Positions 10,941-29,705 of a stretch of 64,000 nucleotides of DNA are shown piece after piece (position 1 is the stretch's first letter; every line of letters starts with the position of its first letter). This DNA is from Deltaproteobacteria bacterium (GTDB lineage Bacteria > JAGRBM01 > JAHCIT01), in NCBI GenBank assembly GCA_026129095.1, contig JAHCIT010000001.1:1-64000 (forward strand), written 5' to 3'. Under the pieces are notes generated by a model. That model searched no databases. It saw nothing but the letters and a program-made list of their open reading frames with translations, and had not been told where the DNA came from. The translations under genes and the position numbers were made by a program.

Positions 10941-10955
10941 GACGTCTCCCCGCTT

Positions 10956-12109: not shown

Positions 12110-12131
12110 CCGGAACACCGCGGTCAGGAGA

Positions 12132-15100
12132 TCAGGCCTGTTTCCGGCGCCGCCGGATACGTCCTGCCGCTCCCGCGAGCGCCATCACAAGGCCAATCGC
12201 CGCGCCGGGATCCGTGGCACCGGCCGCGCAGCCGCCACCCTTCTTGGTGGGGTTTCCGGGCGTTCCGCCGCCACCACTGCCGCCGCTGCCGGCCGCCAGC
12301 ACGTTGATGAAGAACGGACCGATCGTGGTCGAGCTGGTGCCGTCGGAAACAATGTAGAAGATGTTGTTGTAGAGGCGGATATCCGTCGCTTCCGGCGTTC
12401 CGGACAGAACCCCTGTCGAGCTGTTCAGCGTGAGCCAGTCAGGCTTGTTCAGCATCGTGATCGTCAGGGTGTCGGTTTCCGGATCAGAGATGGTCGGACT
12501 GAAGGAGTACAGCTGGCCCACCACTGCCGCGGAGGCCGGTGTGCCCGTCACGACCGGCGGCTGGTTTATCTCGATATCAAACGAGGGGAGCGCCACCGGG
12601 GCGTTCACGCCGTCCGATATCCAGATGATGATGTTCGTGTACGGGCTGTTCGCCAGATGGGCGGGAACCGAGGACAGCGGTGAGCCGCCTAGCGATCCAT
12701 TGCCCGTCAGGTTGAACGTGCTGCCGTCGCAGGGAGCGCCGGTATCGCCCGCGAAGACTGCCCAAGCCGGCAGGTTCTCGATGCAGAACCGCAGGTCGTC
12801 GTAAGCCTCCGCATTCACGACCGTCGGCGTGAAGCTGTAGGTCCGGTCAAGACCGGCGCGGGGCGCCGGTACGCCGGAAATCACCGGGATCCCGTTCACG
12901 ATGATGGTCAGCGGGTTGACGTAGTAAACCGGATCGAAGTTGCCGTCGGTCACGCCCACCCTGATCTCGTAGGAACCGACATCGGCCGAAGTCAGGCCGC
13001 CCGGGGCGACCGATACCGTTCCGTCGGCCGAGTTGAACACCAGCCAGTCGGGCTGGCCCTGGATCACGAACAGCAGGTTGGCGTTCTCGCCCGGATCGTC
13101 ATCATTGGCCGTCCACTGGATGTTCGCCAGCTCGTCGGTCGTGAGGTCTTCGGCCACAACATAAGACGCCTGGACCATGCCGGTGAAGTTGATCGTCGGC
13201 CGCGAATTCACGATGATCGTGAAGGCCGGGAGCAGCACCGGCTGGTTTACGCCGTCGCTCACCCAGATCCGGATGTCCACGTACGAACCCTGGTCGCCGT
13301 CCACCGGGACCCCGCTGATATTGCCGCTCGTCGCCGGGAGGAAGGCCGGGTAGACGCCAGCGTCGCAGGTGGCCCAGTACGGACAGTTCTCGACGGCGAA
13401 CTCCAGTGCGTCGCCGTCCAGATCATAGACGTCGGGCGTGAATCCGGCCGGCGAGTGGTAATCGCTATTGATCGCCACCATCGTTGCGGGGCCGCCGGAG
13501 ATCACCGGCGGGCTGTTTACGACGATATCGAAGGCTGGCAGGGAGACCGGCGGGTTGATGCCGTCCGTCACCGAGATGACGATGTTCTGGTACGGGCTGT
13601 TGGTGCTGTCGGCACGGATCGGCGTGCCCCACAGGCGGCCCGTTGAAGGGTCGAAGAAGGCCCATGCCGGCTTGTTCGCAATGCTGTAGACAAGCGTGTC
13701 GTCATCCGGATCGGTCGCCACCGGATCAAACGAGTACAGGATGCCCGGATTGGCGACGGTACCCGGCGTGGCCGGGTCGAATACCGGCGGCAGGTTCGGC
13801 CGGATCACAACGACCTCGAAGGCCGCCGAGGCCACCGCCAAGTTCAGCGGATCCTTCACCGAGATCACGATTCCCGAATAGGTGCCGGCGTCGGCGATGC
13901 CGGGGGTTCCCGTCAGGACGCCGGTCGAGGGGTTGAAGCCTGCCCAGGGCGGCCGGTTCTGGATCGTGTAAACGAGCAGCGGTATGTCGCCGGCCTCGAA
14001 GGTGTCGGTTCCGCCCGGATTGCAGGTAAACAGGTTGCCGGCCAGCACGACGTCGTCGCCGCACGGCGTCGTAAAGCTCGGCGGGCCGTTCACGTACAGG
14101 CTCGGAATGACGAGCTGGACCGGATCGTTCACGCCATCGGTCACCTCGATGGTGACATTCAGGCTGGCCACGCCCGCATCCAGGATGCTGGGCGTTCCGC
14201 TGAGGACACCCGTGCTCGGGTCGATGCCCATCCAGCCCGGGTTGTTGATGACCGAGAAGGTAAGCACATCGCCCGCGTCAGGGTCGCTCGCGATCGGCGC
14301 GAACGTGTAGTCCACGCCTGTCGGTATGTTCGCCGGCGAGGTGCCGGAGATCGCCGGCGAACGGTTCACCAGTATGGAGAACGGAGCCAGCTCGACCGGT
14401 GCGAAGTTGCCATCGGTAACGGCGATGATGACGTTCTCGTACAGGCCGCCGTCGCTGGGCAGCGGACGTCCTGGCTGGTTGGTGAGCGCGCCGGTCGTCT
14501 GATTGAACTGGGCCCATGCGGGCAGGTTCTGGACCGACCAGATGAGGGTTTCGCCGTCCGCATCCACCGCCGAGACTGTCGTCGAGTAGGGAGTCAGCGG
14601 GCTCACCGGAACGACAGTCTGCGGGCTGCCAGGCTGAAATGACGGCACGGGCGGCGTGTTCACTATGATCGTGAACGGCCCGATCGACGAGGGGACATTC
14701 GGCAGCACCGCGTCGCGCACCCATATCCGGATGCCCGCATAGGCGCCGCGGTCCCCGGCCGCCGGGGTGCCGCTGATTTCACCGGTACCGGCGGCAAAGG
14801 CCGGGTAAACACCACCGTCGCAGGTGGCCCACGCCGGGCATTCCTCGATGGAGAACTGCATGGCATCGCCATTGGGATCGGTCGCCACCGGCGTGAAGCT
14901 GAAGGGCGAACCGACAGCCGCAAAGGCGGGCGGCACGCCGGAGATCACCGGCGGGCTGTTCACGACGATATCGAACGGCGCCAGCGAGGCCGACTGGAGC
15001 GTCATGGTATCCCGGATCGTGATGATGATGTTCGTATAGGGGCTGTTCGTCGCGTCAGCCACGATCGGCGTTCCGGACAGGGCTCCGGTCGCCGTATTGA

Positions 15101-18100
15101 ACGTCGCCCAGGCCGGCTTGTTGGTGATCTCGTAGGCGACGGGATTGTTCACCGGGCTCGATCCCGTCGGCGTGAACGAGTAGGCCTGACCGGGGACCGC
15201 GAAGGTCGCCGGCGTTCCGCTGATAACCGGATCGCCCGTCACGGTGATCGTGAAGGCCGGGAGCGCGGTCGTCTGGAATCCGTCCGTGACGGAGATCGTG
15301 ATATTCGTGTGGAAGCCCGCGTTGGCCGCCAGCGGCGTGCCGGTGAGCTGGCCCTGTGACGGACTGAACGACAGCCACGAGGGCCGGTTGGTGACCGAAT
15401 AGGTGAGCGTGTCGCCGTCCCCGTCGGTCGCCGTCACAACGAGCCCGGCGGGGTATTCGTACGGCGTTCCGACCGGCACCGAGAGATCCGGCGTGAGGCC
15501 GGCGGCCGTGAACGCCGGACGGCTGTTCACCCGGATATTGAAGTTGAGCGTGTTCGACACGAGGGGGATGGGGTTGCTGGTCCCGTCGTCCGCCTCGATC
15601 TGGATGGCGTAGACGCCGGCGTCGGCATCGCTCGGGGTGCCGGTGATGGCTCCCGTATTCGGGTTGCACAGCGCCCAGGTGGGGCAGGTGCCCAGGAAGT
15701 CGAACACGAGCGTGTCGCCGTTCGGGTCGGTTGCGACCGGCGTGAAGCTGAACGCCGTGTCCGGCACCGCACGCGGGACCGTGCCCGCCGACAGGACCGG
15801 CGCACCGTTCACCTTGATGCTGAACGGGCTGGTGGAAACCACCGGGAACACGTTGTCGGTCACCGAGATCACGATGCCGGTGTAGAGGCCCACGTCCGCA
15901 CCGGTCAGGTTGCCGTTCGAGGTGATCGAACCCGTGAGCTGGTCGAACGAGGCCCAGGCCGGGCGGTTCGTGATCGAGTACAGGACGACGCCGGGCGTGG
16001 GCGTGGGCGTGAAGGTATAGGGCGAGCCCACGTTCACCACATCGGGGTTGGCGGCCGGGGCATCCACCGTGGGCGGCGTGTGCACGATGATGGTGAACAT
16101 CGGGTACGAGACGTACGTCGCGCCGCCGTCGTCGCTCACGCTCACCTCGACGAACTGGTAGGTGCCGCCGTCAGCCAGGACCGGGGTGCCGGTCATGTTG
16201 CCGGTGCCGGGCGCGCAGGCCGGGAAGTCGCCGCCGCCGAAGGTCAGCCACGCGGGGCGGTTCCGGATGCGCCAGCAGAAGGGTGCGGTGTCATCGAAGT
16301 CGAACACCGACGGGGTGTATCCACCCGCGCCGCCGTAGTTGCTTCCGACGGAAACCTGGGTCGGCGGAACCGGTGTGCCCAGCACGGGGAGCGAGTTCAC
16401 GTCGATGCTGAATACGGGGAGCGCCACCGGCGGATTCAGGCCGTCGCTCACCTCGATCACGATGCCGCCATACACGGCCGAATCGAGCTGGCTCGGCGTT
16501 CCGCTGAGGCGGCCCGTCGTGGAGTCGAACAGCGCCCAGGGGGGCTGGTTCGTGATCGCGAAGGTGAGCACGTCGTTTTCAGGGTCGGTCGTCACGGGCT
16601 GGAAGACGTAAGGCTGGTTGGGCTGCGCACGCAGGGCAGGCGTTCCGGAGATCACCGGCGGCGCATTGACCGTGATCGTGAAGGCCGGGAGCGAAACCGC
16701 CGGGTTGTATGGGTCCGCAACGCTGATGACGATGCCGGTGTAGATGCCGCTGTCGGCAGGCGTGGGCGTTCCCGACAGATAACCCGTCGCCGCATTGAAG
16801 GTCATCCAGATCGGCCGGTTCACGATCGAGTAGGCGAGGAAATCGGCTTCCGGATCGGTCGCCAGCGGCAGCGCCACCGGGAACTCGAAGAAGTCGCCCG
16901 CGATGAGCTGCGTATCAGCGGGCGTGTCGTTGAACGCGGGCGGTCCGTTGACCTCGATCGTGTAGCTCACCGGAGCGGTTGTGACCGTTCCGTCAGACAA
17001 TTCGATGTCGAAGGTGTACGAGCCCACGTCCGGAAGGCCCGGCTGGCCGCTGATCGTCCCGGTGGACGGGTTGCAAACCGCCCAGGACGGACACCCGGGG
17101 TTCGAGAAGATGAAGGTGAACGTCTCCGGATTGGCCGGGGGCTGGTGGTTCGGATCGGAGAACGTCGGCGTGAAGGAGTAGTTCACACCCGGCACGGCGA
17201 TGGGCGGCGTCGTCGCCGTCAGGACCGGCGATCCGTTCACCTTGATCGTGAACGGCGGGAGCGAGGCCTCGCCGCCATTGCTGTCGTAAACGGTGATGAC
17301 GATGTTCTCGTACCGGCCGATGTCGGCAACCGACGTGGAGCCCGACAGGGCGCCCGTCACGGTGTTGAACACGGCCCAGGGGGGCTGGTTGTCGATCCGG
17401 TACAGGAGGCCCTGCGGCACACCATCCGGATCGGAAGCGACCGGGGTAAACGTCGGGTAGGCGTTGCCCGCCTGAACGACCGTGGCCGGAATACCGGAGA
17501 TGACCGGCGGCGTGTTGACGACGATGAGGAACCGGAGTTCCACCGGCGGCGAGAACCCGTCGTCCGCATAAAGGATGAACAGGTAGCTGCCGGTATCGGC
17601 CGTCGTGGGCGTGCCGTCGATCAGCACTTCGTACGGGTCGCCGGGGTCCACCGGCGGCGTGACGACCGGGGCGTTCAGCCAGCCCGACTGGTCATCCACG
17701 GTGATGACAAGGGCGTCGCCATCCAGGTCCACGGCGTTGGCAATGAACGTGTACAGGGCGCCCGGCGGAGCCTGGGTGACCGAGGTGGTCGAGATCACCG
17801 GCGGCGCATTGACGCGGATACTGAAGATGAGCGGCGCGGATGCGACGATACCGTCGTCCGCGGTGATCTCGATCCCGGCGTACAGCCCCGAATCGTCCAC
17901 GATGGGAGATCCGGACAGCCTGCCGGTAGCCGTGTCGAAATCGGCCCAGGCGGGGCGGTTCACGATCGAGAAGGTGAGCACGTCTCCCGAGGAATCGACC
18001 GCCGTGGGAGTGAACTCGAATGGCTCGTTCGGACGGATAACTGCGGCGGGCGAACCAGACAGTATCGGCGGCGTGTTCACGCGGATCGAGAACGGATCCA

Positions 18101-21100
18101 GACAGACCGGCAGACTGTTGAAGTCGGTCACGCAGATAACGATATCGTTGTAATTGCCGCCATCTGCAAGGGCAGGAGTGCCGCTCAGGTTCCCGGTGAT
18201 TGTGTCGAACACGGCCCAGGAGGGCTTGTTCGTGATCGAGAACCGGAGCGTGTCGAGCGCCGGGGACTCGGGATCGACCGCGACCGGCGTGAATCCGCCG
18301 CCACCGTTGTACGGATTACCCGCCGACACCAGCGTGTCGGGCGTGCCGCTGATCGTCGGCGGCGTATTCACGACAATGGTGAAGGGGTCGAGGTAGACCG
18401 TCTGGATGCCGTCGGTGACGCCGATCCGGATGCCCACGTAGGTGCCGCGATCGGCCACCAGCGGCGTGCCGGACAGTTCGCCCGTTACCGGGTTGATGCT
18501 CAGCCACGACGGGATATCCGTACCGACGAAGGTCAGCGTGTCGAGCGGATCAATGTCCCATCCGAAGAACGTGTACGAATAGGGAACGGCGATATTGGCG
18601 ATGCCCGGCGGATCACCCTCGATATAGGGCAGCGTGTTCACGATGATGGAGAACGGCCCCAGCACATACGGCGCGTTGACGCCATCGGAAACCGAAATGG
18701 TGATGTTGCTTTCGACGCCATAGTCCACCGCGCCCGGCACGCCATACAGGCGGCCGGTCGTGTAGTCGAAGAAGGCCCAGCTCGGCTTGTTCACGATGTC
18801 ATACGTGAAGGGCCGGTTCGGATTCTGCGGATGGGCGTTCGTATCCGGCAGGAACGAGTATTCCTCGTTCGTGTTGGCGATGGCCGGCGGGATGCCGCTC
18901 AGGGTTGGCGGCGTGCGGGTCAGGTCCACCGACAGCGCCGCGCTGATCTGGAACTGGTTCACGCCGTCCGTCACGGTCAGGATGTACCCGCCCGTTCCAA
19001 AGTGCCCGCCGCCCGGTTGACAGGTGATCGTATTGATCCCGGCGTTCAGCGTCACCATCTGCGGAAGCGAAACATTCTGGAAATCATGCGAGTAGCTCTG
19101 GCCGGTCACCGTCACGCCGTCGCCCTCAAGATCGTTAATGATATATGTGACGACCGTCGGCACATACCGGGGACAGGCGAGATCCGGCCACGGCGATGTG
19201 AAGGTGAGCTGGGGCGTTCCGTTCACGTATACGGAGAAGGGCGCGGATAGCGTCGTGTTGTAACCATCGGTCACCTGAATCTGGATGTTGCTATAGGTGT
19301 TACCGGCTTCCGAGGCGGGCGCATTGGACGCCACCAGGAAGTTGATGAACCCGCCGGACGTTTGCTGCACCAGCGGGGTCATGAACGTCGGAGCATTCAC
19401 CAGCGACATCGTGAGCTGGCTGCGGGCATTATCCGGGTCATCGATGGTAACCGGGTATTGCCTTGGTTGCCCGTCGGTCGGAACCTGTGCCGGAGCAGCA
19501 AACGATACCGCCGGAGGAGCGTTCACCACCAGCCGGATCGGCGTGATTGGAACGACGAAGTTTCCGTCCGTCACGTTGATCTCGATCAGGTAGAGTCCGG
19601 TTTCGTCGATAAAGGCGTTCAGGACCGGAGTTCCGGAGATTTCGCCCGTCTCGGAGTTGATCGCGAGCCAGGTCACCGTGTCGTCCGAGAACAGGAGATC
19701 GGCCACTGGAGCGACGAGTGGATCCGTATAGGACGACCCGCCCCGAACTCCCGTGATCTCGCGGACCTGGAGCGAGAAAGCGAGGATGTCACCGTCCACA
19801 TCGCCCGACGCCGGCGTGAAGCTGAACAGCACGTTCGGCGGGATAATCGGCACCGGAGCGCCGCTGATCGTCGGCGGCGAATTCACGATGATGAAGAACG
19901 GCGGGAGCGTCACGTTGTAGTTGCCGTCGGTGACGCCGATGACGATTCCTTCGTACTTGCCTTCGGGTGTTGCACCACCGCCGTCGTCCGTAATCTCGCC
20001 CGTGGCCGGGTTGAACAGCGCCCAGGACGGCAGGTTCTGCACGGTGAACACCAGCACATCGGCCGGATCCAGATCGAAGGCGGTGGGGGCGAACGAGTAG
20101 GGATCGCCCGTTGCCACCTGCGTGACGGGTGCCGGCGCTTCCAGGATCGGGGGCATGTTCACCCGGAGCGTGAATGGCGCCAGATTCACCGGACCTGCGA
20201 CTCCGTCGGAGACCGAAATCTCGATCAGGTAGTCGCCGCGATCCGCAGCGATCGGCGTGCCGTAAAGCTGGCCGGTCGCCGTGTCGAAATTCGCCCATTC
20301 CGGACGGTCCACGATGGCGAAACTGTAGGCCGACGAATCGCCACCCGTCGCCGCCGGCTGGAAGCTGTAGAGCTGCCCCGGAACCGCCAGAAGGTCGGGG
20401 GTGCCGCTGATCTGGAGCGGTGCACGAACCGTCACAGTGAAGCTGGAAGTACAGACCGGCGCGCCAAACCCGTCGGAAACGCAGATCGCGAAGGTCGAGC
20501 TGGTGCCGCCAAATCCGGCTGGATCGCCGGAGAGGAGTCCCGTCGCCGGTACGAATGCCGCCCAGGCCGGCAGGGTGCCCGTGAAGGAATAGGTCAGGAC
20601 ATCCAGTTCCGGGTCGGTGGCATCGTTGGCCGGGAATAACACCGTCGCACCGGCGGCATCAGACAGGATGACGTTCACCGGGCTTGCGGTCGCAAACGAC
20701 GGGGCGCCGTTCACCTCGATGTCGAACGGGGCAAGCGACACCCAGTTCGCGCCGCCATCATCGCTGACGCGGATTTCGACGTTGTTGTAGGTGCCGGTAT
20801 CGGCCTGTGTCGGATTGCCGGTCAGCGCGCCGGTATTGACATCAAACGCGGCCCACGCCGGCAGGTTCAGGACGCTGAATACCAGCGCGTCGCCATTCGG
20901 ATCGCTGGCAGTCGGCGTGAAGCTGTAGGCCGAGCCCGCACGGACGAACCCCGCCGGGGTGCCGCCAATAACGGGATCGCCGTCGATCTTGACGGTGAAC
21001 GCACCAAGCGCAACGGCCGGATTGATACCATCCGAAACGCTGATGATGATGTTGGTGAAGTTGCCGATCTGGGCCGCCGGAGCCGGACCGCTGGTGAGCG

Positions 21101-24100
21101 CACCGGTCGTCGTGTCGAAGTTGGTCCATGAGGGCTGGTTCGCGATGGACCAGATCAGCGTGTCGCCATCCGGGTCGGTAGCGTTCACTGCCACCGCGAG
21201 GTTGTTGCCCGGATCAACCGAATAGACGGTATTCGGCTGGAGCGTGATGTCCGGCGGGTTGTTCAGGCTGACGGTGATGATGACCGTCGCGATGTCTGTT
21301 CCGTCGTCCAGGTCGAACTCGACGTTCCAGTCGGGACCAATATCCCAGTCAGCAAGCGTTGGCGTGCCGGAAATGGTGCCGGTCAGCATGTTGCAGACGG
21401 CCCACGGCGGGCAGTTGCGGAGATCATCAATGACGACCGTGTCCCCGTTCGGGTCACTGATCGCCGGCGTGAAGGTGAACAGGAACCCCGGCCGGGCCAG
21501 CGACGGCTGATTCGTGATGGTCGCCAGGCCGTTCACGATGATGGAGAAGGACGCCATCGTCACCGGGGCGTTGATGCCGTCGGTCACTGTGATCGTCACG
21601 TTCAGGTAGTTCCCGATTTCGGCTGCAGTTACCGGGGCGCTGGTGAGCGCGCCCGTCGTACCATTGAAACTGGACCAGGGCGGCTGGTTGGTGATGGTCC
21701 AGGTCAGGGTATCGCCATCCGTGTCGTTGGCCGTGGCGGTGAAGTTCAATGAATCGCCCACGGAGAGCGCAATCACGCCCGGCGACGGGACCGTGAACAC
21801 CGGCGGATCGTTCACCAGGATATCGAAAGCGGGCAGGTCGACGGTCGTCACGCCGCCGTCGTCGCTCACGCTGATGATGATGTTGCTATAGGTTCCGGCA
21901 TCGGCCAGCGAGGGTATGCCACGCAGTTCGCCGGTTGCCGCGTTGAAGGTCGCCCAGGGCGGCTGGTTCTGGATCGAGAACGTGAGCGTATCGTTGTTAA
22001 CATCACTCGCCGTCGGCGTGAACGAATAGAGCGAGCCCGGAGTCACCAGCGTGGGCGGGTTGCCGGAGATCACCGGCAGGCCGTTCACCCTGATGTCCAG
22101 GGTTTTCGAAACCGATCCGCCATTGCCGTCGTTCGCCGTCACGACGACGCCGTTGTAGTTCCCGGCCACATTCGCAGTCGCTGTTCCCTGCGCGTAGATG
22201 AGCCCCAGCGACGAATCGAAGCTGGCCCAGGCCGGCAGATTCGCCACCGTGTAGACGAGCGGGTCTCCGTCGTCGTCCAGCGCGTAAGGCTCGGCAAGGT
22301 CAACTACGAAAGATTCGTAAGGATCGCCCGCCTGGATCGCCGTGATGTCCGTGTAGAAGGGGTTAAAATACGGCGCCGAGTTGACGATGATGGTGAACGG
22401 ATTGAGGTAGACCGTGGGCGTGATGCCGTCCGAAATGGAAACCTGGATGGCGTAGGATCCGTTATCGGCACCACCGGCGTCCGGAGTGCCATCAATGGCG
22501 AACAGGTAAACCCCGCCCGGAGTCGGATTACCGGGGTAGGGATCCAGCATCGCCCATCCCGGCGTCGTCACCTGGACGTTCAGTGCATCGCCATCCGCAT
22601 CGACTGCCGAAATAATGATCCATACCGGATCTCCCGGCGTGACCATGACCATGCCCGATACCAGCGGATGGGAGTCGGACAGTATATCCCCCGTCGGCTG
22701 CGAATTGACCGTCAATGTGAACACGAGCGGAGCCGAGGTCAGGCCGCCGCTGTCGGTGGCGGTGATCTCGATGCCCGCGTAGGTGCCGCCGTCATCCACG
22801 ATGGGCGTTCCCGACAGGGTGCCGGTCGTCTCGTCGAAGAACGCCCATTCAGGTTTGTTCGTGATGGCGAAGGTAAGCGCATCGCCGTTGGGATCGTTCG
22901 CCACGGGAGTGAAGGTGAACGGCTGGTTCGGCCGCAGTTCGGTCACCGGCGTTCCGGTCAGCACCGGCGAGCCGTTCACGTGGATCGAGAACGGCGCCAG
23001 CGACACGGGCGCGAAGTTGCTGTCGGTCACCGAGATGATGATGTTGCCGTAAGTGCCGGCATCGCCCTCGCCCGGTGTTCCGGTCAGCGCGCCGGTGAAC
23101 TCGTTGAAATCGGCCCAGGGCGGCTTGTTCTGGACCGAATAGAGGAGCGGTGTCAGGCCCGGTGCGTTCGTGTAGGCCGACACCCGGTAGACATCATCCG
23201 CCGTGAAGACGGCGCCGCCCGAGAGCGCCGGGTTCAGCGTGAGGTCCGTCGCCGCGATGCCGCCCGCGTCGATGACGCTGGAGGCGGACGGATCAACGCT
23301 CAGGTTCTCCACCAGGTCGCCGGCCGCGAGCACCGGCGAGAGCGCGGTGAAATCAATGCCGGTGTCTTCCAGCGTCGTGGCCGAGCCGCCCGTGGCAAGG
23401 CCGGAGAAGATGCCGTCCGGATCGTTCACGACCGGGACAAACAGCGGATACGGATCGCCCGCGTTGACCGAGGCGGCTGGTGCCAGCGGCGCGGTGATGA
23501 CCGGCGGCTGGTTCACGATGATCGTGAACGGCGGGAGCGAGACGGTTTCCGGGCCCGCGCTGTCCTGGACCGACAGCACGATGTCAACAAAGCTGCCGCC
23601 CGACGTCGGCGCGATGTTGGTGACCGTTCCGGTGACGGGGTTCAGCGATGCCCACGGCGGCAGGTAGTTCACCGTCCAGGCGAGCACGTCGCCCTCCGGA
23701 TCGAAGGCGGTCACGGTGCTGGAGTAGCCGCCGGCGAGGACGCCCTGCAGCACCGAGATCACCGGCATGCCCGCCGGGAACGATGGCACCGGCAGGCTGT
23801 TCACGCGGATATTGAACGCGCCAAGGCTGACCGGCGTGTTCGTTCCGTCGGTCACCGTGATGTTGATGCCGTTGTAGTCGCCCGCGTCGATCTGGAGCGG
23901 CGTGCCCGAGATGTTGCCGTTGCCGGGATCGAACAGGGCCCACGGCGGCAGGTTCACGACCGAGTAGGTGAGATCGTCAGCCTCCGGGTCGGTCACCGCC
24001 GGCGTGAAGGAGTACAGCACACCGGGATAGGCGCGGGTTTCCGGCGTGCCGCTGATTGCCGGCGGGCCATTGACCGAGATGCTGAACGGCGCGAGCGAGA

Positions 24101-27100
24101 CGGGCGCATAGACGTTGTCGGTCACTGAAATGATGATGTTGGTGTAGGTGCCCGCGTCGGCGGCCGTGGCTGTACCGGTGATGGAGCCCGTCACGGTGTT
24201 GAAGGTCATCCACGGCGGCAGGTTCTGCACGGAGAACGAGAGCGGGTCGAGATCCGGATCGTTCGTCACCGGCGTGAAGGTGTAAAGCACACCCACTCCG
24301 GCGGTGGGATTCGGGATGCCGGAAATCGTGGGCGGACTGTTCACGGTGACCGTGAAAGCCGCCAGCGACACGGCCGGCCAGTACGGATCCTGGACCGTGA
24401 TGATGACGTTCGCATAGGAGCCGGTCACCGTCACCGGGTTGCTGCACAGTTCCCCCGCGCCGCAGGGTGCGCCGTCGAAGGCCGCCCAGGCTGGTAGGTT
24501 GCTGATCGAATACACCACCGGGTCGCCGTCCGGGTCGAGCACGTCGGGCGTGAACGAGTACGGCTGGCCCGCGCCGATGAACAGCGTGGGGGCGCCGGAG
24601 ATCGAAGGCGGCGAGTTGACGCGGATCGAGAAGGGCGCAAGCGAGACGGGCGAGTTATTCCCGTCGCTCACCGAAATGACGATACCGGCGTAGTTGCCCG
24701 AATCGGCCTGCGTCGGGTTGCCGGTGAGCGCGCCGGTGGCCGTGTCGAACGTGGCCCATGCCGGACGGTTCGTGATGGAGAACACCAGGACATCGGCATC
24801 CTGGTCGACGGCCGTGGGCCTGAACTCGTACGCATCGCCCGGCCGCACGAGCGTCGCGGGGGTGCCCGTCAGTGACGGCCGGTTGTTCTGGCCGATATAG
24901 AGGGCGCCGTCGCTCAGGCGCTGGTAGAGCTTGCGGGCCGCCGGCATCGTGATGTTGATGCCGCGGCTCACCTTGCCGGCCTGCACCGCCACCACGCCGG
25001 GGCGGGTAACATCGTTGTGGATGCTCCGGCTTGCGCCGGTGGTCACTCCGGCGGGGCACTCCGCGTCGGAGGCGATCCGGTAGTAGTCGCCGGCGGCGAA
25101 CGACTGGCCGCCCGACAGGGCGCCCGAGAAGCTGATGACGTTCTGGGTGATTCCGGCAACGGCGATCGTCGAATCGCCCAGCACGGCCGTCGAACCGACC
25201 TTCTCGACCAGCATGCCGTCGGCAATTCCAGTCGTGGTGAAGTCGCGGCTCGTGTCGATGAGGGTCAGCGTCGAGCCTCCCGTGGCAATGCCGGTGATGC
25301 CGTCACAGGGCAGTTCCACGCGGTCCGGACTGCCAAGGTCAACCGTATCGACCCGCTCGAAAACGCCGCCCGGGCTGCCGCTGTACAGGTCGCCCGAATC
25401 AAGGCTGACCGCGCTGGAGTATCCGCGTCCGCTCACCTTCGCGAGATACGAACGGACCACCTGCGAGACGTCCCCGACACTGCCGTCGAGGTCCATCGCA
25501 AACACCAGGTATTTGGCCGTGCCCTTGCCGGGATTCACCGGGAGGCCCGAGATGAGGTAGCAGCCCGAACCGCCCGTCGAGGCAATCGTCGGATCCGGGT
25601 CGGAAAACTCATGTACGCCATCCGTACGGGTGGGGAACTCAAGATCGATTTCCAGCGGGTCGATGGCGAGCGTGCGGATCGCATGGCAGCGGGCCGCCAC
25701 AGCGGGATCGGCCGGGTGACCGAAGTTCGTGCCGGATACCGCTTCCTTGTATTCGCGGCAGTAACGGTGAACGGCGCTGTCCGGGTCCACGGGCGCGCCG
25801 GTCAGCGAGCCCACCACGTCACGCTCGGCGAGCGGCTGGTATACCGAGTTCTCGTCGGAGTTGCGGCCGTCGATTTCGACCGCAACGATGCTGAGGCCGT
25901 GCACGGGATCGCCGTTGGCGTCCCGCACGCAACCGGCGATGGCGGCGGTTCCGCCGATGACTCCGTCCACGATCTCGTAGCTGTCACCATTGATGAACTG
26001 GTTGACCGTGCCGCCAACCAGCCCGTTCACGATGATCACGCTGCCGGACACGTATTCAACCGTGCCCCACGACCTGTCGGTCAGGTTGTGGACCGCATCG
26101 CCAGGCGCGACGCCGGCAAGGCCGAAGTCTTTTGACAGATCAAACAGGAACCGGGTGTTGGGGAACGAGGTGATGAACGGGGGAGTGTCGTCAATCACCG
26201 CATAGCGCTGCCCGCCCTGCCAGACGTTCGATGATCCGCCAGTGAGCGGTCCCGCCAGAGTCAGCCGGTCGCTGGCAATCACCGCGATGACGCCCGAGGA
26301 ACCATCGGTGATATTGTACAGGCGGTCGCCGATGTTCAGCCCGGCAATGGAGGTGAAGTCCGACTGCGAATCGGCGATCATGACGGTCGTGCTCGCGCCA
26401 CCCGGGAAATCGCCGGTAATTTCATACTGGTCGCCCGGCTGGAAGTTGATGACCGTCCCGCTGCAGCGGACATAGGACGTCCCAACCGCTGTCACGGTGC
26501 AGGAGAGCCCCTGCGTGACATTCCGGAGAGTGGCGCCCATCGGCACCCCCGACGCCGAGAAACTGGCCGCCGCATCCCACAGTTCGTTGGAGACGCCGCT
26601 CGTGGTGGTGATGTTGGGGCCAACCAAACGGAACTGGTTCAGCCGGTTCCAGACGTTCGATGTGCCTCCGGAAAGACCGGCGACCATCTGCACCGTGTTC
26701 CCGTATGCCGGAGCCGAAAGAACCGTGCCCGAGGAACCATCGGTCACGTTCTGGACGATATCCCCCGGACTGACGCCCACCGCGAAGAAGTTGACCGTGG
26801 TTGAGGTCAGGTCGCCGGTCGCACCGGGCCCGGAGATGTTGTTCCCGATAATCCGGTAGCTGTCGCCTGCCAGCCAGCCCGACGGCAGGTTCGTGTGGGT
26901 GATGGACGAAAAGGGCGTCAGCGGAGCAACCGTCACTGTCGCCTGCTCACCGGTGGTTTCGTTGATCACCAGGTCGCCCGCAGCAACGGAGCCGAACGGA
27001 TTCAGAGGATCCACGAGCGAGGTCGCCGTGCTGGCAGCGTCCGCCAGTCCACGCATGTGGGGCAGATGAACCCCCGTCGACACGCCATCGGCCGTGCCGG

Positions 27101-28730
27101 CAATGATGCCGAGCGTCCGGCCCGTGATGCCGTTCCGGGCAGAGTTGGTGTTGCGCAACGTTCCGTAGATGCGGAAGCTGTCGCCCGCCACGAAGATGTC
27201 GGCCGTCAGCGTGAGCTGCGTTGCGGCGACCGCCGTAACGTCGGTCTGGGCGCCGGTGGTCTCGTTCACCACCACGTCGCCAACCCGGACGCCAACCCGC
27301 GTGAAATCCCACCCGAACACGTTGTATTCGAGTGCACTCGCCACCGTCGCCGTTGCATTCCCCTGCAGGTCGTTCAGGACCGTACCGGGATACATCATCA
27401 GCATGGCGGCCTCGTCGTCGGCTTCCAGTATCCGGATCAGGCTGTTCTGGTCGCGGGGAAAATCCTCCCGGATCGGGAACATGGAGGGCTGCATGAACTC
27501 GTTCTCGGCCGCGAAGATGGGCGAGTGGTCAAGCCCCATCGCCAGACCCATCGCCTGCGTCAGCAGTCCTTCCATTCCGGCCGAGAAACCCGAATCGATG
27601 GTGGAAAGCGCCGTCGCCGTGACCAGGATATCCGCGTCCCGGATCACGCCATGCGCCATGCCGCGGGCGCGGCCGGAAATGTTCCGGACGCCGTCCCTGT
27701 CCACCGCGGGGAGGACCACCATCATCACTCCGGACGGAAGGTTCAGCTCCTGGCCGATGGATCCCGTGGAATCGTCGTACACGATCTGGCTGATTCCGTC
27801 GGCCGGGTTCAGCGCGAAGCCGAGATCCACGTCGTGATGGTCGATGTCGTAAATACTGGTGCCACCCGCGCCGCCGATCACAAAGTAGTCGTCGGTTCCC
27901 CGCAGCGGGAGCCGTTCCCAGTAAAGGTCGGAGGGGTCAAACACCGTGATGTTGGGGGTCACCGCCGGATTGAAGTCGAACTGGCTGGCAGAACTGATCT
28001 GGCCGGCGAAATCGCCGTCGCACGGATGCATGTCCGCATGGGTGAACATGAAACCGACACGGGTGGGGCCGGCTGTCCCCAAGCTGCCGACACCGTTCGG
28101 GCTGTCGCCGCTCCGCTGGGTCTGGACTTCGTTCCAGGTGCTCATCGCCACCAGCGCGGCGCGAATCGGCCCGACAATGCTCGTTTCGGTCGTGGACCGG
28201 AGGATGATCCGGTACCCGCTGGACGAATTCAGCGGATCAATCGCCTGCTCGGTGATCGACAGTTCGGGGCAGCGGAACCCCGCGCTCTGGTTCGAGTCGA
28301 TCACGTAGGTCACCACCGGGCCATCCACCTGCGACTGCCGCAGGTAGGAGCCACCGGGCGTGAGGACCGGAGCGGTCCGGCCATCGCGCCTCATGTAGGC
28401 GACCGGGTTGTGGAACTGGCTGGCAGGATCGTCGGGATCGAGCGGGAAGCCTTTGCCGTAAACCATCTCGAGGCCCTGGCCACCGGTGGCATTGCTGGCA
28501 GTCACCGGATAGATGCCCGGAGCCGACTGCCCCCGCACCGTGTCGGCGAGCCGGTCCCACCGCATCATGAGGATGCCGTCGGTATCCGGGTCGGCGTCGC
28601 AGCGGGTCGAGGCCGGATCGCAGAAGAATGCCTTCTGAACCCAGCCGGACGCCGGATCGGGGCGCGAGCCGACCGATACCAGCGCGACAGCCGCCGCCAG
28701 TGCAAGATACGCAGATATACGCTTCATCAT
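12132..28730 (-). CDS. Giant (5532 aa) surface protein: signal peptide, degenerate matrixin-like domain, unrecognised beta repeats, about 43 He_PIG/cadherin-like Ig repeats, MYXO-CTERM-like anchor
   Basis: Uninterrupted 16.6-kb ORF with RBS; MMKRISAYLALAAAVALV leader; repeats NxPPxISGxP...FTP...DxDGD.L.FS..N.P.WA.F...TG.L.GTP...D.G.Y..I.I.V.DG; tail KKGGGCAAGATDPGAAIGLVMALAGAAGRIRRRRKQA. Confidence 0.93.
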   Translation of the reverse strand: MMKRISAYLALAAAVALVSVGSRPDPASGWVQKAFFCDPASTRCDADPDTDGILMMRWDRLADTVRGQSAPGIYPVTASNATGGQGLEMVYGKGFPLDPDDPASQFHNPVAYMRRDGRTAPVLTPGGSYLRQSQVDGPVVTYVIDSNQSAGFRCPELSITEQAIDPLNSSSGYRIILRSTTETSIVGPIRAALVAMSTWNEVQTQRSGDSPNGVGSLGTAGPTRVGFMFTHADMHPCDGDFAGQISSASQFDFNPAVTPNITVFDPSDLYWERLPLRGTDDYFVIGGAGGTSIYDIDHHDVDLGFALNPADGISQIVYDDSTGSIGQELNLPSGVMMVVLPAVDRDGVRNISGRARGMAHGVIRDADILVTATALSTIDSGFSAGMEGLLTQAMGLAMGLDHSPIFAAENEFMQPSMFPIREDFPRDQNSLIRILEADDEAAMLMMYPGTVLNDLQGNATATVASALEYNVFGWDFTRVGVRVGDVVVNETTGAQTDVTAVAATQLTLTADIFVAGDSFRIYGTLRNTNSARNGITGRTLGIIAGTADGVSTGVHLPHMRGLADAASTATSLVDPLNPFGSVAAGDLVINETTGEQATVTVAPLTPFSSITHTNLPSGWLAGDSYRIIGNNISGPGATGDLTSTTVNFFAVGVSPGDIVQNVTDGSSGTVLSAPAYGNTVQMVAGLSGGTSNVWNRLNQFRLVGPNITTTSGVSNELWDAAASFSASGVPMGATLRNVTQGLSCTVTAVGTSYVRCSGTVINFQPGDQYEITGDFPGGASTTVMIADSQSDFTSIAGLNIGDRLYNITDGSSGVIAVIASDRLTLAGPLTGGSSNVWQGGQRYAVIDDTPPFITSFPNTRFLFDLSKDFGLAGVAPGDAVHNLTDRSWGTVEYVSGSVIIVNGLVGGTVNQFINGDSYEIVDGVIGGTAAIAGCVRDANGDPVHGLSIVAVEIDGRNSDENSVYQPLAERDVVGSLTGAPVDPDSAVHRYCREYKEAVSGTNFGHPADPAVAARCHAIRTLAIDPLEIDLEFPTRTDGVHEFSDPDPTIASTGGSGCYLISGLPVNPGKGTAKYLVFAMDLDGSVGDVSQVVRSYLAKVSGRGYSSAVSLDSGDLYSGSPGGVFERVDTVDLGSPDRVELPCDGITGIATGGSTLTLIDTSRDFTTTGIADGMLVEKVGSTAVLGDSTIAVAGITQNVISFSGALSGGQSFAAGDYYRIASDAECPAGVTTGASRSIHNDVTRPGVVAVQAGKVSRGINITMPAARKLYQRLSDGALYIGQNNRPSLTGTPATLVRPGDAYEFRPTAVDQDADVLVFSITNRPAWATFDTATGALTGNPTQADSGNYAGIVISVSDGNNSPVSLAPFSIRVNSPPSISGAPTLFIGAGQPYSFTPDVLDPDGDPVVYSISNLPAWAAFDGAPCGAGELCSNPVTVTGSYANVIITVQDPYWPAVSLAAFTVTVNSPPTISGIPNPTAGVGVLYTFTPVTNDPDLDPLSFSVQNLPPWMTFNTVTGSITGTATAADAGTYTNIIISVTDNVYAPVSLAPFSISVNGPPAISGTPETRAYPGVLYSFTPAVTDPEADDLTYSVVNLPPWALFDPGNGNISGTPLQIDAGDYNGINITVTDGTNTPVSLGAFNIRVNSLPVPSFPAGMPVISVLQGVLAGGYSSTVTAFDPEGDVLAWTVNYLPPWASLNPVTGTVTNIAPTSGGSFVDIVLSVQDSAGPETVSLPPFTIIVNQPPVITAPLAPAASVNAGDPYPLFVPVVNDPDGIFSGLATGGSATTLEDTGIDFTALSPVLAAGDLVENLSVDPSASSVIDAGGIAATDLTLNPALSGGAVFTADDVYRVSAYTNAPGLTPLLYSVQNKPPWADFNEFTGALTGTPGEGDAGTYGNIIISVTDSNFAPVSLAPFSIHVNGSPVLTGTPVTELRPNQPFTFTPVANDPNGDALTFAITNKPEWAFFDETTGTLSGTPIVDDGGTYAGIEITATDSGGLTSAPLVFTLTVNSQPTGDILSDSHPLVSGMVMVTPGDPVWIIISAVDADGDALNVQVTTPGWAMLDPYPGNPTPGGVYLFAIDGTPDAGGADNGSYAIQVSISDGITPTVYLNPFTIIVNSAPYFNPFYTDITAIQAGDPYESFVVDLAEPYALDDDGDPLVYTVANLPAWASFDSSLGLIYAQGTATANVAGNYNGVVVTANDGNGGSVSKTLDIRVNGLPVISGNPPTLVTPGSLYSFTPTASDVNNDTLTFSIQNQPPWATFNAATGELRGIPSLADAGTYSNIIISVSDDGGVTTVDLPAFDILVNDPPVFTVPSPGVIALSVGDSLNFTATANDTDGDTLTWTITNQPPWSSFNGTTGALTSAPVTAAEIGNYLNVTITVTDGINAPVTMASFSIIVNGLATITNQPSLARPGFLFTFTPAISDPNGDTVVIDDLRNCPPWAVCNMLTGTISGTPTLADWDIGPDWNVEFDLDDGTDIATVIITVSLNNPPDITLQPNTVYSVDPGNNLAVAVNATDPDGDTLIWSIANQPSWTNFDTTTGALTSGPAPAAQIGNFTNIIISVSDGINPAVALGAFTVKIDGDPVIGGTPAGFVRAGSAYSFTPTASDPNGDALVFSVLNLPAWAAFDVNTGALTGNPTQADTGTYNNVEIRVSDDGGANWVSLAPFDIEVNGAPSFATASPVNVILSDAAGATVLFPANDATDPELDVLTYSFTGTLPAWAAFVPATGLLSGDPAGFGGTSSTFAICVSDGFGAPVCTSSFTVTVRAPLQISGTPDLLAVPGQLYSFQPAATGGDSSAYSFAIVDRPEWANFDTATGQLYGTPIAADRGDYLIEISVSDGVAGPVNLAPFTLRVNMPPILEAPAPVTQVATGDPYSFAPTAFDLDPADVLVFTVQNLPSWALFNPATGEITDDGGGATPEGKYEGIVIGVTDGNYNVTLPPFFIIVNSPPTISGAPVPIIPPNVLFSFTPASGDVDGDILAFSLQVREITGVRGGSSYTDPLVAPVADLLFSDDTVTWLAINSETGEISGTPVLNAFIDETGLYLIEINVTDGNFVVPITPIRLVVNAPPAVSFAAPAQVPTDGQPRQYPVTIDDPDNARSQLTMSLVNAPTFMTPLVQQTSGGFINFLVASNAPASEAGNTYSNIQIQVTDGYNTTLSAPFSVYVNGTPQLTFTSPWPDLACPRYVPTVVTYIINDLEGDGVTVTGQSYSHDFQNVSLPQMVTLNAGINTITCQPGGGHFGTGGYILTVTDGVNQFQISAALSVDLTRTPPTLSGIPPAIANTNEEYSFLPDTNAHPQNPNRPFTYDIVNKPSWAFFDYTTGRLYGVPGAVDYGVESNITISVSDGVNAPYVLGPFSIIVNTLPYIEGDPPGIANIAVPYSYTFFGWDIDPLDTLTFVGTDIPSWLSINPVTGELSGTPLVADRGTYVGIRIGVTDGIQTVYLDPFTIVVNTPPTISGTPDTLVSAGNPYNGGGGFTPVAVDPESPALDTLRFSITNKPSWAVFDTITGNLSGTPALADGGNYNDIVICVTDFNSLPVCLDPFSIRVNTPPILSGSPAAVIRPNEPFEFTPTAVDSSGDVLTFSIVNRPAWADFDTATGRLSGSPIVDDSGLYAGIEITADDGIVASAPLIFSIRVNAPPVISTTSVTQAPPGALYTFIANAVDLDGDALVITVDDQSGWLNAPVVTPPVDPGDPYEVLIDGTPTTADTGSYLFILYADDGFSPPVELRFLIVVNTPPVISGIPATVVQAGNAYPTFTPVASDPDGVPQGLLYRIDNQPPWAVFNTVTGALSGSTSVADIGRYENIVITVYDSNGGEASLPPFTIKVNGSPVLTATTPPIAVPGVNYSFTPTFSDPNHQPPANPETFTFIFSNPGCPSWAVCNPSTGTISGQPGLPDVGSYTFDIELSDGTVTTAPVSYTIEVNGPPAFNDTPADTQLIAGDFFEFPVALPLATDPEADFLAYSIVNRPIWMTFNAATGYLSGTPTPADSGIYTGIVISVADPYNPAVSLPAFTITVNAPPVISGTPALRAQPNQPYVFQPVTTDPENDVLTFAITNQPPWALFDSTTGRLSGTPSQLDSAVYGGIVIEVSDGLNPPVALPVFSIDVNSLPVLGTPVPPTQVSVGSNYGGAGGYTPSVFDFDDTAPFCWRIRNRPAWLTFGGGDFPACAPGTGNMTGTPVLADGGTYQFVEVSVSDDGGATYVSYPMFTIIVHTPPTVDAPAANPDVVNVGSPYTFTPTPTPGVVLYSITNRPAWASFDQLTGSITSNGNLTGADVGLYTGIVISVTDNVFPVVSTSPFSIKVNGAPVLSAGTVPRAVPDTAFSFTPVATDPNGDTLVFDFLGTCPTWALCNPNTGAITGTPSDADAGVYAIQIEADDGTSNPIPLVSNTLNFNIRVNSRPAFTAAGLTPDLSVPVGTPYEYPAGLVVTATDGDGDTLTYSVTNRPSWLSFSPSQGQLTGTPLAANAGFHTNITISVTDGFQTTALPAFTITVTGDPVISGTPATFAVPGQAYSFTPTGSSPVNNPVAYEITNKPAWATFNTATGALSGTPIVADATNSPYTNIIITIRDTMTLQSASLAPFDIVVNSPPVISGVPPAFAAVGSPFSFTPVATDPNGDAMQFSIEECPAWATCDGGVYPAFAAGTGEISGTPAAGDRGAYAGIRIWVRDAVLPNVPSSIGPFTIIVNTPPVPSFQPGSPQTVVPVSPLTPYSTTVSAVDADGETLIWSVQNLPAWAQFNQTTGALTNQPGRPLPSDGGLYENVIIAVTDGNFAPVELAPFSILVNRSPAISGTSPANIPTGVDYTFAPIASDPDAGDVLTFSVINNPGWMGIDPSTGVLSGTPSILDAGVASLNVTIEVTDGVNDPVQLVIPSLYVNGPPSFTTPCGDDVVLAGNLFTCNPGGTDTFEAGDIPLLVYTIQNRPPWAGFNPSTGVLTGTPGIADAGTYSGIVISVKDPLNLAVASAAFEVVVIRPNLPPVFDPATPGTVANPGILYSFDPVATDPDDDTLVYSIANKPAWAFFDPSTGRLWGTPIRADSTNSPYQNIVISVTDGINPPVSLPAFDIVVNSPPVISGGPATMVAINSDYHSPAGFTPDVYDLDGDALEFAVENCPYWATCDAGVYPAFLPATSGNISGVPVDGDQGSYVDIRIWVSDGVNQPVLLPAFTIIVNSRPTINFTGMVQASYVVAEDLTTDELANIQWTANDDDPGENANLLFVIQGQPDWLVFNSADGTVSVAPGGLTSADVGSYEIRVGVTDGNFDPVYYVNPLTIIVNGIPVISGVPAPRAGLDRTYSFTPTVVNAEAYDDLRFCIENLPAWAVFAGDTGAPCDGSTFNLTGNGSLGGSPLSSVPAHLANSPYTNIIIWISDGVNAPVALPSFDIEINQPPVVTGTPASAAVVGQLYSFSPTISDPETDTLTITMLNKPDWLTLNSSTGVLSGTPEATDIRLYNNIFYIVSDGTSSTTIGPFFINVLAAGSGGSGGGGTPGNPTKKGGGCAAGATDPGAAIGLVMALAGAAGRIRRRRKQA
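12300..24890 (-). repeat. Array of about 43 He_PIG/cadherin-like Ig repeats (about 90-100 aa each)
   Basis: Hand count of recurring (V/I)NxPP starts; DxDGD putative Ca-binding motifs; conserved P.W and TG.L.GTP. Confidence 0.85.
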
Positions 28731-28778
28731 GGCTAGTTCCTTCCTGGTTCAGGGGGACTTTCCATACCCCCTGGCAGG

Positions 28779-29438
28779 TCACTTCCTTTTCGGTTTCCCG
28801 GTATCCGTTTCCGGTTTGGCGGCTGCGGCCGCCGGCCTGGCAGCACCGGATTTCCCGGTGGCTGCGGTAATAAGACTGATCACTTCATCCAGCGTCAGGC
28901 CGGAGATATGCGGCTTGTCCTGCTGGCGAACCTGCCTGACCTCCTGGTCGTAGACCCGGACAATACCGGGGCTGGCGATGACGGTTTCCGGCTCGCGCGA
29001 CGAGGGGCGCGTCACTTCCATCACGCCCTGCTTCCAGCCGACGGTGGTGCGGAACCCGTTCTCGAACTCCGGGGTCACAAACAGCAGGTATTTCTGTCCC
29101 TGCACGAACCGCGGAGCGCCCGGCACGGTGACATTCATCTCGCCGCGCTGGCCGCCCAGCACACGGATGGACAGATCCTCGAGGGGCGGCTCGCCCAGAA
29201 TGTTCGTCTGCACATCGAAACGGCTGACCGTGAACACCCGTGCCCCGGTCGCATCCAGATGAGACGACTGGCCGACACAGGTTGCCACCACCACATGCTC
29301 GGATTCGTCGATCAGATCCCGGAGCGTGCGTTTTTCAACCAGAGCGCGAACAGGAAGCGCCGTGACGGCAGCCACAGCTACCGTCAAAAGACACAGGAAC
29401 CGGAAGACCCTCCGGTCCTTCCATGTAAGAAGATTCAT
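28779..29438 (-). CDS. Secreted hypothetical protein, probably co-transcribed with the giant protein
   Basis: Signal peptide ending ...ALPVRA; LRDLIDESEHVVVATC...VFT...IRVLGG...VPGAPRF..GQKYLLF; ends 48 bp before the giant gene. Confidence 0.8.
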   Translation of the reverse strand: MNLLTWKDRRVFRFLCLLTVAVAAVTALPVRALVEKRTLRDLIDESEHVVVATCVGQSSHLDATGARVFTVSRFDVQTNILGEPPLEDLSIRVLGGQRGEMNVTVPGAPRFVQGQKYLLFVTPEFENGFRTTVGWKQGVMEVTRPSSREPETVIASPGIVRVYDQEVRQVRQQDKPHISGLTLDEVISLITAATGKSGAARPAAAAAKPETDTGKPKRK

Positions 29439-29705
29439 GGCCGTTTCATGATAAGGGTGCTGGCCAGAGGCCGTCAAGCATTCTCCCGTGTGTTTACGCG
29501 GACTTACCCCGAAAAAGTGTGGTTTATATTACAGTTCCAGAACGGATTACCGGTGCATTTATGTAAGCATTTGTACACCAGGGACAGAAACTGCCCGGAT
29601 ACCGGAATCATTAACGCCGGAAACGCCGTTTGCGGCTGTTCATGAAAGCCGCCCACCTCGCCTTTTTTCGAAACAGGTGTAACAACTACCGCAACCCGGA
29701 CACCT

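Follow-up and report, generated by a model that had tools for sequence, protein, structure and literature searches.

We analysed a window of 64,000 nucleotides (positions 1 to 64,000 of contig JAHCIT010000001.1 from a deltaproteobacterium) with two adjacent minus-strand genes, whose 48-bp gap, described in a preliminary description of this DNA, was borne out. The downstream gene (12132..28730, minus strand) is an uninterrupted ORF coding for a giant surface protein of 5532 aa, and the upstream gene (28779..29438, minus strand) codes for a secreted partner of 219 aa, counted from its ATG. The two genes occur together in all three of the same-family genomes whose neighbourhoods were checked. The GC content at third codon positions of the giant frame is 0.84, compared with 0.59 and 0.51, and because of this bias the long plus-strand frames over the giant gene (up to 1056 aa) were read as shadow frames. 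One sigma-70-like promoter site, TTGACG-18-TATCAT (29448..29477, minus strand), was found where 0.3 would be expected; it ends 9 nt before the partner ATG and both of its boxes are kept in the four genomes aligned. A TTG at 29477 was considered as the start of the partner gene and rejected, since it is part of the -35 box of this conserved site. Judging from the sequence, the transcript of the partner gene would be near-leaderless. Both proteins begin with what reads by eye, without a predictor, as a Sec-type signal peptide, in line with the earlier proposal: aa 1-29 of the giant protein (28644..28730, minus strand; conserved in orthologues) and aa 1-32 of the partner, where cleavage at VRA|L would give the mature N-terminus L33-V34-E35. 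A Tat reading of the partner signal (RRVF) was dropped because this motif is not conserved, the relatives having LR, RK and QQ. Contigs from three RNA libraries span the giant gene; such contigs cannot show transcription, its level or operon structure. Run X5 had no cover at 11000-11663, and this was given no evidential weight. Sequencing runs that shared few words with the window were set aside when habitat was considered.

The first domain of the giant protein after the signal peptide (aa 30-450, 27381..28643, minus strand) is a catalytically dead matrixin-like (M10-like) domain with family-specific inserts, and the suspected resemblance was confirmed by profile. Motif alignment revealed a degenerate zinc motif, Q392-A-M-G-L-A-M-G-L-D-H402 (27525..27557, minus strand), which corresponds to NALGHA[MI]GLDH in three relatives and departs from the HExxHxxGxxH consensus. 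The catalytic Glu and the first zinc His are absent from the head in all four family genomes, the general-base Glu being Ala in each, whereas the Met-turn residue M417 is invariant in the four genomes and its column is also invariant in a 41-row alignment. In a search with the four head sequences, an HMM of 59 intact metzincin-like neighbours was matched with E values of 9e-9 to 9e-17, and an Atlas lead from the head to PF00413 scored 0.89. The mixed alignment A3 matched MMPs at 4e-21, a signal that comes mainly from its intact members. The profile scan gave no direct Pfam match for the head, the four-sequence head profile matched nothing in the PDB, searches of 1056 candidates of 3042-9681 aa returned only the head, and phmmer against 1.8 billion representatives found only the query itself. 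Among the 401 genomes searched, the head is confined to its own family, save for three weak matches to intact matrixins. In a FastTree phylogeny it nests among matrixins bearing a carboxypeptidase-regulatory-like domain (support 0.84), distant from the intact matrixin paralogue of the family, which the genome of the window also encodes. Across the four family genomes, identity in the catalytic half of the dead head is 67-70%, whereas the corresponding half of the intact paralogue reaches 49-56%; five neighbouring housekeeping genes range over 60-79%, and a neighbouring competence gene is at 45%. As its motif reads, the head appears to be a non-catalytic matrixin derivative.

The beta repeats that had been left unrecognised following the head turned out to be copies of a small beta-barrel unit of ~73 aa, of which the protein has eight. 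Six are in tandem (aa 455-923, 25962..27368, minus strand; repeat analysis and fold search), the seventh (aa 1145-1222, 25065-25298, minus strand) lies within the carboxypeptidase-regulatory-like domain, and the eighth (aa 1775-1852, 23175-23408, minus strand) is inserted in the stalk. The number of barrels varies among family genomes; one of them (G001) has two copies at the position of the six in the window. The repeat matched no named family. The search of PDB sequences gave weak matches, none better than E 0.026, among them a chain from a phage baseplate at E 0.62; the fold search returned a tailspike domain at Z 8.2, the rest at Z 6 or less, with a best E of 0.002 in BFVD. Because this range of Z allows a common arrangement, a phage-tail origin of the barrels is only a lead. 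The carboxypeptidase-regulatory-like sandwich (aa 927-1262, 24945..25952, minus strand) is colinear with its counterpart in 13 intact matrixins, which speaks for the earlier assignment, although the match to PF13620 is below the cut-off (18.7 versus 32.3 bits, E 0.0022, 24 aa) and is broken by inserts including barrel 7.

The stalk (aa 1282-5477, 12300..24887, minus strand) is an array of ~43 cadherin-like Ig repeats of the He_PIG type, in which D-x-[DE]-x-D motifs recur. The Pfam He_PIG profile (PF05345) covered 15+16 stretches with 387 and 394 bits against a gathering score of 24, and a custom HMM found 44 Ig segments. In two cases an insertion divides one domain into a pair of these segments, and a ~100-aa gap (3170-3271) is unmatched; we therefore count ~43 domains, the number given before. 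Such a stalk would presumably be roughly 140-190 nm long, given the per-domain lengths that we assume. The remainder of the protein (12132..12299, minus strand) comprises a Gly/Ser linker and a Cys-containing C-terminal sorting signal, in which GGGC with C5501 is followed by DP at 5507-5508, a hydrophobic helix and the Arg cluster RIRRRRK. The tail scored 17.5 with the MYXO-CTERM model TIGR03901 (cut-off 20), and its Cys, transmembrane helix and Arg cluster, noted previously in the window, are kept in all three relatives. The genome encodes the T2SS components GspD and GspE, both over the cut-off, and, on other contigs, two CPBP proteases, whose best scores stay below the myxosortase cut-offs (74.3 versus 100 for Mrt_core and 68.6 versus 75 for MrtJ). 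With the dead motif, the He_PIG array and the Cys-TM-Arg tail all found, the view of the protein as an anchored pseudo-protease on an Ig stalk is supported.

The partner was modelled with a pLDDT of 81, and the model has the TIMP/NTR fold. The top match of the fold search was N-TIMP-3 (Z 10.2, rmsd 2.7, 116 aligned residues), the top 13 rows were all TIMP/NTR-type domains, and agrin NtA (Z 9.4) and C345C/NTR domains ranked above all other OB folds. Identity to TIMP sequences is 9-12%. The mature chain has one Cys and starts with L-V-E, so that the Cys1-x-Cys3 disulfide network of TIMPs is missing. Within the family of the window the N-terminus reads L/V-x-E with Glu35 invariant, and in the wider TIMP-fold family positions 1-2 are most often Thr. 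Across the family genomes the partner shows 61-63% identity, compared with 45-52% for the TIMP-like domain of the intact paralogue. The partner profile found nothing among PDB sequences and the search against PHROGs nothing useful; none of the 67 members of the partner family matched any Pfam family at E 0.01, including PF00965, or had a meaningful NCBIfam match.

Members of the partner family were found in 62/301 genomes, and in 62 of 67 distant loci the gene is beside, or fused to, a metzincin-like domain; in 4/67 the TIMP-fold gene has no adjacent metzincin. Each of ten C-terminal fusions examined has a second signal peptide, which would regenerate a free N-terminus. The pair had been proposed as an undescribed surface system. 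That proposal stands in part: the general TIMP-fold and matrixin pair is widespread and the window pair derives from it, whereas the catalytically dead, stalk-mounted variant is new and specific to this family. The literature searched, mostly papers outside subscription and without their supplements, held no description of the partner family or of the dead stalk-borne form.

Prediction of the head-partner complex gave a score of 0.78, the best of three controls scoring 0.00. The score mark was reached by 116/157 solved complexes and 2/215 mismatched pairs, counts that hold only roughly here. The predicted complex resembles those of TIMPs with MMPs in that the partner N-terminus enters the cleft of the dead protease; partner residues 33-35 and loops 62-69, 92-108 and 122-135 contact residues 304-311, 327-346, Q392, A393, L396 and D401 of the head. 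At least 65% of the contacts recur between runs, with a pLDDT of at least 75 for the partner and 53-60 for the head, from alignments dominated by intact homologues. This predicted interface speaks for the inhibitor-like partner or cap that had been suggested. Head residues at the interface are invariant at 25/37 positions versus 118/297 elsewhere, and those on the partner side at 23/37 versus 59/130 (p 0.09, weak); both comparisons draw on four related genomes that are not independent. The score may, however, reflect likeness to solved TIMP-MMP structures. This and the TIMP-fold genes without a neighbouring metzincin would suit a vestigial gene order, with the partner now only a folding helper, or independent and unbound to the head. 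We consider this unlikely, since the order of the genes, their promoter and the sequences of both proteins show strong conservation in all four genomes and it is the invariant residues of the head that touch the partner.

The same contacts bear on whether the head could be a residual or unconventional enzyme, with a metal site made of the two His retained by the three relatives and of the N-terminal amine or Glu35 of the partner, which is invariant and touches the former active site in the model. This seems very improbable: the window copy has a single His, L396 replacing the other, and the general base is lost in every family genome. Because the window copy keeps only one His, the metal site of the head is not under constant selection. 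The retained TIMP fold and free N-terminus of the partner, the presence of an intact matrixin paralogue and the wide occurrence of the partner family would also suit an inhibitor depot or decoy, in which the TIMP-fold protein is kept on the dead head at a distance from the cell and let go against foreign matrixins, or in which the head captures the TIMP-fold inhibitors of competitors and so protects the cell's own intact matrixin. We give this little credence, as the inhibitory face is buried in the model, the partner N-terminus differs from the one commonest in the wider family and the tree separates the head from the paralogue.

We therefore favour, as probable though far from certain, a non-catalytic, surface-anchored binding tip derived from a retired enzyme-inhibitor complex. 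The two-gene operon would descend from the widespread module, whose TIMP-fold protein, secreted and free of disulfides, would block the active site of the matrixin encoded with it. In this family the catalytic Glu and the first zinc His of the matrixin have been lost and, according to the model, its partner-binding surface was kept. Both proteins would be exported by Sec; by analogy with MYXO-CTERM proteins, a sortase of the CPBP family would cut the giant protein at its Cys-containing tail, where it would receive a lipid anchor, and type II secretion would then carry it to the surface. There a stalk of ~43 putatively Ca-binding Ig domains would carry a compact tip of pseudo-protease, TIMP-fold cap, carboxypeptidase-regulatory-like domain and variable barrels. 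The tip would cut no peptides and would act as a long-reach binding head for a surface, a matrix or another cell; the partner would either belong to it permanently as a subunit or, as a cap, keep the peptide-binding cleft closed until contact. The architecture suggests an adhesin, which might serve adhesion, prey or host recognition, biofilm formation or kin contact. A more elaborate form, possible but doubtful, is a gated, non-catalytic receptor at the end of a 150-250 nm filament, whose TIMP-fold cap gives way to a peptide ligand presented by prey, by a host or by kin, while phage-tail-like barrels of variable number tune specificity; two-subunit adhesin tips of this kind would form a new class. 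The separate genes, the anchorless partner and the long reach, together with a Cys-type sorting tail as in myxobacterial TraA (PMC11980579), might instead point to a receptor-ligand pair, the secreted TIMP-fold protein acting in trans to link the heads of neighbouring cells or to pass signals between them, in the manner of kin recognition. This too is improbable, because across genera no part of the head is more conserved than the predicted interface, in contrast to the polymorphism of kin receptors of the TraA type, and only one binding face is predicted on the partner.

If the binding-tip reading is true, an enzyme-inhibitor interface has outlived its enzyme and found new use in an adhesin tip, structural or gated. 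For the TIMP-matrixin module of bacteria, the loss of catalysis has left the interface conserved. This conservation and the second signal peptides of the ten fusions both argue for binding of the TIMP type, which they open to direct testing. The locus shares with the animal TIMP-MMP system (MEROPS I35 with M10A; 3cki, 1uea) the NTR/OB fold, a matrixin-type partner domain and predicted binding through a free N-terminus and adjacent loops. However, the partner has neither Cys1 nor a disulfide-bonded N-terminus, is 9-12% identical and gives no Pfam TIMP match, and the protease is dead and borne on a 4200-aa stalk. Intact bacterial pairs such as L078/L079 have their genes in the order seen here and an equivalent succession of domains, from matrixin through carboxypeptidase-regulatory-like domain to GGGC-TM tail, with a weak match, below cut-off, to NF041905 (myxosortase-dependent metalloprotease, MXAN_2677/2678 family); intact pairs have HExxHxxGxxH and mostly 200-1000 aa, whereas the protein of the window is dead and has grown through insertions of barrels and Ig domains. 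Potempins have a fold that differs from that of the window partner. The Tannerella potempin gene sits immediately upstream of its cognate KLIKK peptidase (PMC9890683), and potempins are lipoproteins with active targets, in contrast to the dead head. The Listeria Mtz-Tim pair likewise has adjacent metzincin and TIMP-like genes, but Tim (PMC8235301) is a lipoprotein cleaved by active Mtz and encoded 3' of the protease gene, whereas here the partner gene is upstream and the head is dead. With MYXO-CTERM and JDVT-CTERM proteins such as TraA (PMC11980579; 10.1101/2023.06.07.544157), the giant protein shares the Cys, hydrophobic helix and Arg cluster, with T2SS and CPBP proteases in the genome; with JDVT-CTERM signals, DP lies nine residues after the Cys and the sortase gene is adjacent, compared with DP at +6 in the giant protein and CPBP genes on other contigs. 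No TraA-type domain was detected in the giant protein. Adhesins of the SiiE, LapA and ice-binding types place a binding tip at the far end of a long array of Ca-binding Ig-like domains. Compared with these giant Ig-repeat adhesins, the protein of the window shows no type I secretion signal, ends in a putative C-terminal lipid-type anchor and has a tip made of a pseudo-protease and a separate subunit.

Both reading frames of the preliminary description were confirmed on the minus strand as adjacent genes, a giant ORF of 5532 aa (12132-28730) and a small ORF of 219 aa (28779-29438), separated by 48 bp. A promoter-like site, TTGACG-18-TATCAT, ends 9 nt 5' of the ATG of the small gene. The start of this gene is fixed, because both boxes are kept in all four genomes aligned, and the conserved boxes suggest that the two genes form one near-leaderless operon. 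Related-strain contigs over the region showed only two indels, one outside the giant gene and the other in the Gly linker, where 3 nt are inserted in frame. An Hsp70-like gene (29706-31502, plus strand) is divergent from the pair and syntenic with it in 4/4 genomes; the 267-bp intergenic stretch beside it contains a second conserved block, TGTAAT.TAAAC.ACA, possibly the promoter of the Hsp70-like gene or a regulator site. Serine acetyltransferase-like and cysteine desulfurase genes (10104-12074, plus strand) run towards the giant gene's 3' end, and a GC-rich hairpin-like stretch lying between (~12076-12112) may terminate both transcripts. A 1285-aa protein with an NHL beta-propeller and TPR repeats is encoded at 36277-40134 (plus strand).

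The expectation that the two genes co-occur was borne out, as the other three family genomes all carry the pair, with gene order preserved wherever contigs permit. Searches of the two genomes from the same taxonomic order (93-96% complete, but fragmented) did not recover the head, and its profile, run against 401 genomes, matched the family only, plus three weak matches to intact matrixins. Conservation is strong: between family genomes the catalytic half of the head is 67-70% identical, as compared with 49-56% for that of the family's intact matrixin paralogue. The corresponding values are 60-61% for the neighbouring cysteine desulfurase, 73-74% for the Hsp70-like protein, 76-78% for PurH, 60-69% for the carboxypeptidase-regulatory-like sandwich domain and 40-50% for the ~73-aa barrel repeats.

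In a Pfam scan, He_PIG repeats were found across aa 1271-5532 of the giant protein, and neither aa 1-1270 nor the small protein gave any match; a custom HMM detected ~43 Ig domains. The tail scores just below the MYXO-CTERM cut-off, and its pattern, GGGC...DP...TM...RRRRR, is common to all three relatives, in each of which the cysteine desulfurase gene adjoins the tail end of the giant gene. In one relative, G001, the giant gene is broken between two contigs with a 55-nt end overlap. Each of the two parts aligns to aa 2929-5062 of the window protein; the G001 stalk is therefore probably longer, at ~65 Ig domains, although the contig break falls within a repeat. Two other lineage proteins of 3000-4000 aa (L140, G001:C26; L141, G005:C1) share these He_PIG repeats and have other heads; their ends are presumably RHS-like.

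For Myxococcus, one report describes Cys-type tails that are cleaved by myxosortase, predicted to be lipidated and delivered to the surface by the T2SS (PMC11980579). The genome studied here encodes GspD and GspE of a T2SS, both above cut-off, at least four Cys-type tails (strict pattern) and two CPBP proteases, both under the myxosortase cut-offs. By analogy, the giant protein would undergo tail cleavage, lipidation and T2SS transfer to the surface, where it would be anchored. A census of large ORFs in this 3.7-Mb genome (G000) yielded ten frames >3000 aa, at C20:41689-71616, C12:43197-101337, C9:8236-21114 and elsewhere, one of them of 9976 aa and four clustered on contig C12; so many giant frames may be a hint of predation or of a contact-dependent lifestyle.

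The small partner protein is predicted to have a TIMP-type fold. In an Atlas search, bacterial clusters without a name scored 0.97, and TIMP/NtA/NTR clusters followed at 0.82-0.89; in the best of the latter, 19% of members are labelled TIMP. The AlphaFold model (pLDDT 81) matches N-TIMP-3 (Z 10.2, rmsd 2.7, 116 residues), and N-TIMP-3, agrin NtA and complement C345C domains rank above generic OB folds. A profile of the partner family (16 rows) matched 62 of 301 genomes. Of the 89 non-family matches, 68, chiefly those with higher scores, were surveyed for neighbours; they fall at 67 loci, seven of which were also in the seed alignment, and some of the genomes are close kin. At 58 of these loci the partner-family gene is fused to, or lies on the same strand next to, a sequence with an intact HExxHxxGxx[H/D] motif; the other nine comprise two fusions to HExxH domains whose third ligand is atypical, one matrixin cut by a contig end, one fusion to a dead matrixin (L089), four loci without an adjacent metzincin and one unresolved case. 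The window's pair descends from this TIMP-fold and matrixin module.

TIMP-type inhibition requires a free N-terminus of fixed length. By a heuristic rule applied without full control, 74 of 77 TIMP-fold domains have their first helix preceded, at a near-constant distance, by the end of a signal-peptide-like segment (Ala counts: 26 at offset 8, 49 at offset 9 and 2 at each of offsets 4-7); these include all 10 domains fused behind a protease and membrane tail. One-ORF matrixin/TIMP-fold fusions occur at L018 (G000:C12:448912-450810), its orthologues L019-L021, L084, L089, L092 and L111. The L018-type ORF, in the order intact matrixin, GGGC-TM-basic tail, second signal peptide and TIMP-fold domain, would be a protease-inhibitor polyprotein, from which signal-peptidase cleavage would release a free N-terminus. 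At L064, L066, L067 and L121, other proteins of at least 3000 aa have an intact matrixin domain beside or fused to a TIMP-fold gene.

The head matches an HMM built from 59 intact neighbour matrixins. His1 and Glu of its zinc motif are lost in 4/4 family genomes and His2 additionally in the window's copy, while His3 and the Met-turn are retained. Nearest to the head are short proteins (L078, L079) composed of a matrixin, a carboxypeptidase-regulatory-like domain and a GGGC-TM tail. In a midpoint-rooted tree with moderate support (68 sequences, 159 columns), the head groups with such proteins (support 0.84), not with the family's own paralogue. This closeness and grouping argue that the giant is such a protein enlarged by insertions: six barrels after the protease domain, one within the sandwich domain and the Ig stalk before the tail. 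The second dead matrixin, L089 (motif AYGLGAGLWYSP; G041:C66, locus frame 8794-11193), comes from an unrelated genome, where it forms a fusion with a TIMP-fold domain; it lies outside the family clade, which suggests an independent loss of the catalytic motif.

One barrel repeat was modelled (pLDDT 89) as a small all-beta barrel. Its best structural matches are phage tailspike, distal-tail and baseplate domains (Z 8.2, then ≤6.0), and it also matches viral proteins in BFVD. The window has eight barrels, G001 four and locus L126 at least nine; similar repeats were found in four unrelated large proteins.

The proposal that head and partner share an interface gained support from complex prediction, in which head aa 30-452 with mature partner and zinc scored 0.78 versus 0.00 for the best of three controls. 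In calibration, 116 of 157 solved complexes and 2 of 215 mismatched pairs attained the score mark; for this job, with custom alignments and a ligand, these rates are only a rough guide, and the pass may be due to likeness to solved complexes. Runs agreed in at least 65% of contacts, with pLDDT of at least 75 for the partner and only 53-60 for the head. The partner is predicted to bind in the dead cleft: its first three residues and three loops touch aa 327-346, the strand overlying the cleft, as well as positions 392, 393, 396 and 401 of the former active site, an arrangement that we take to be TIMP-MMP geometry. Among four related genomes, interface residues are invariant in 25/37 versus 118/297 elsewhere in the head, and in 23/37 versus 59/130 in the partner, consistent with the predicted complex. 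That the partner is vestigial or only a helper is unlikely; use of the pair as receptor and ligand in trans, or as an inhibitor depot or decoy, is somewhat less probable still, and residual catalysis is very unlikely. We favour, with reservation, a locus encoding a non-catalytic binding tip made of a retired enzyme-inhibitor complex; the tip would serve in binding, on a stalk whose length would be as the Ig domains imply.

Literature searches returned no description of the partner family or of a dead, stalk-borne matrixin form. The only bacterial metzincin/TIMP-like pair found in the literature is that of Listeria, whose authors report having found no record of TIMP-like proteins from bacteria (PMC8235301). 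The head lacks the defining residues of M10 peptidases and the partner those of I35 TIMPs, and thus neither is a member of these families, but their binding to each other probably resembles that of M10 peptidases and I35 TIMPs.
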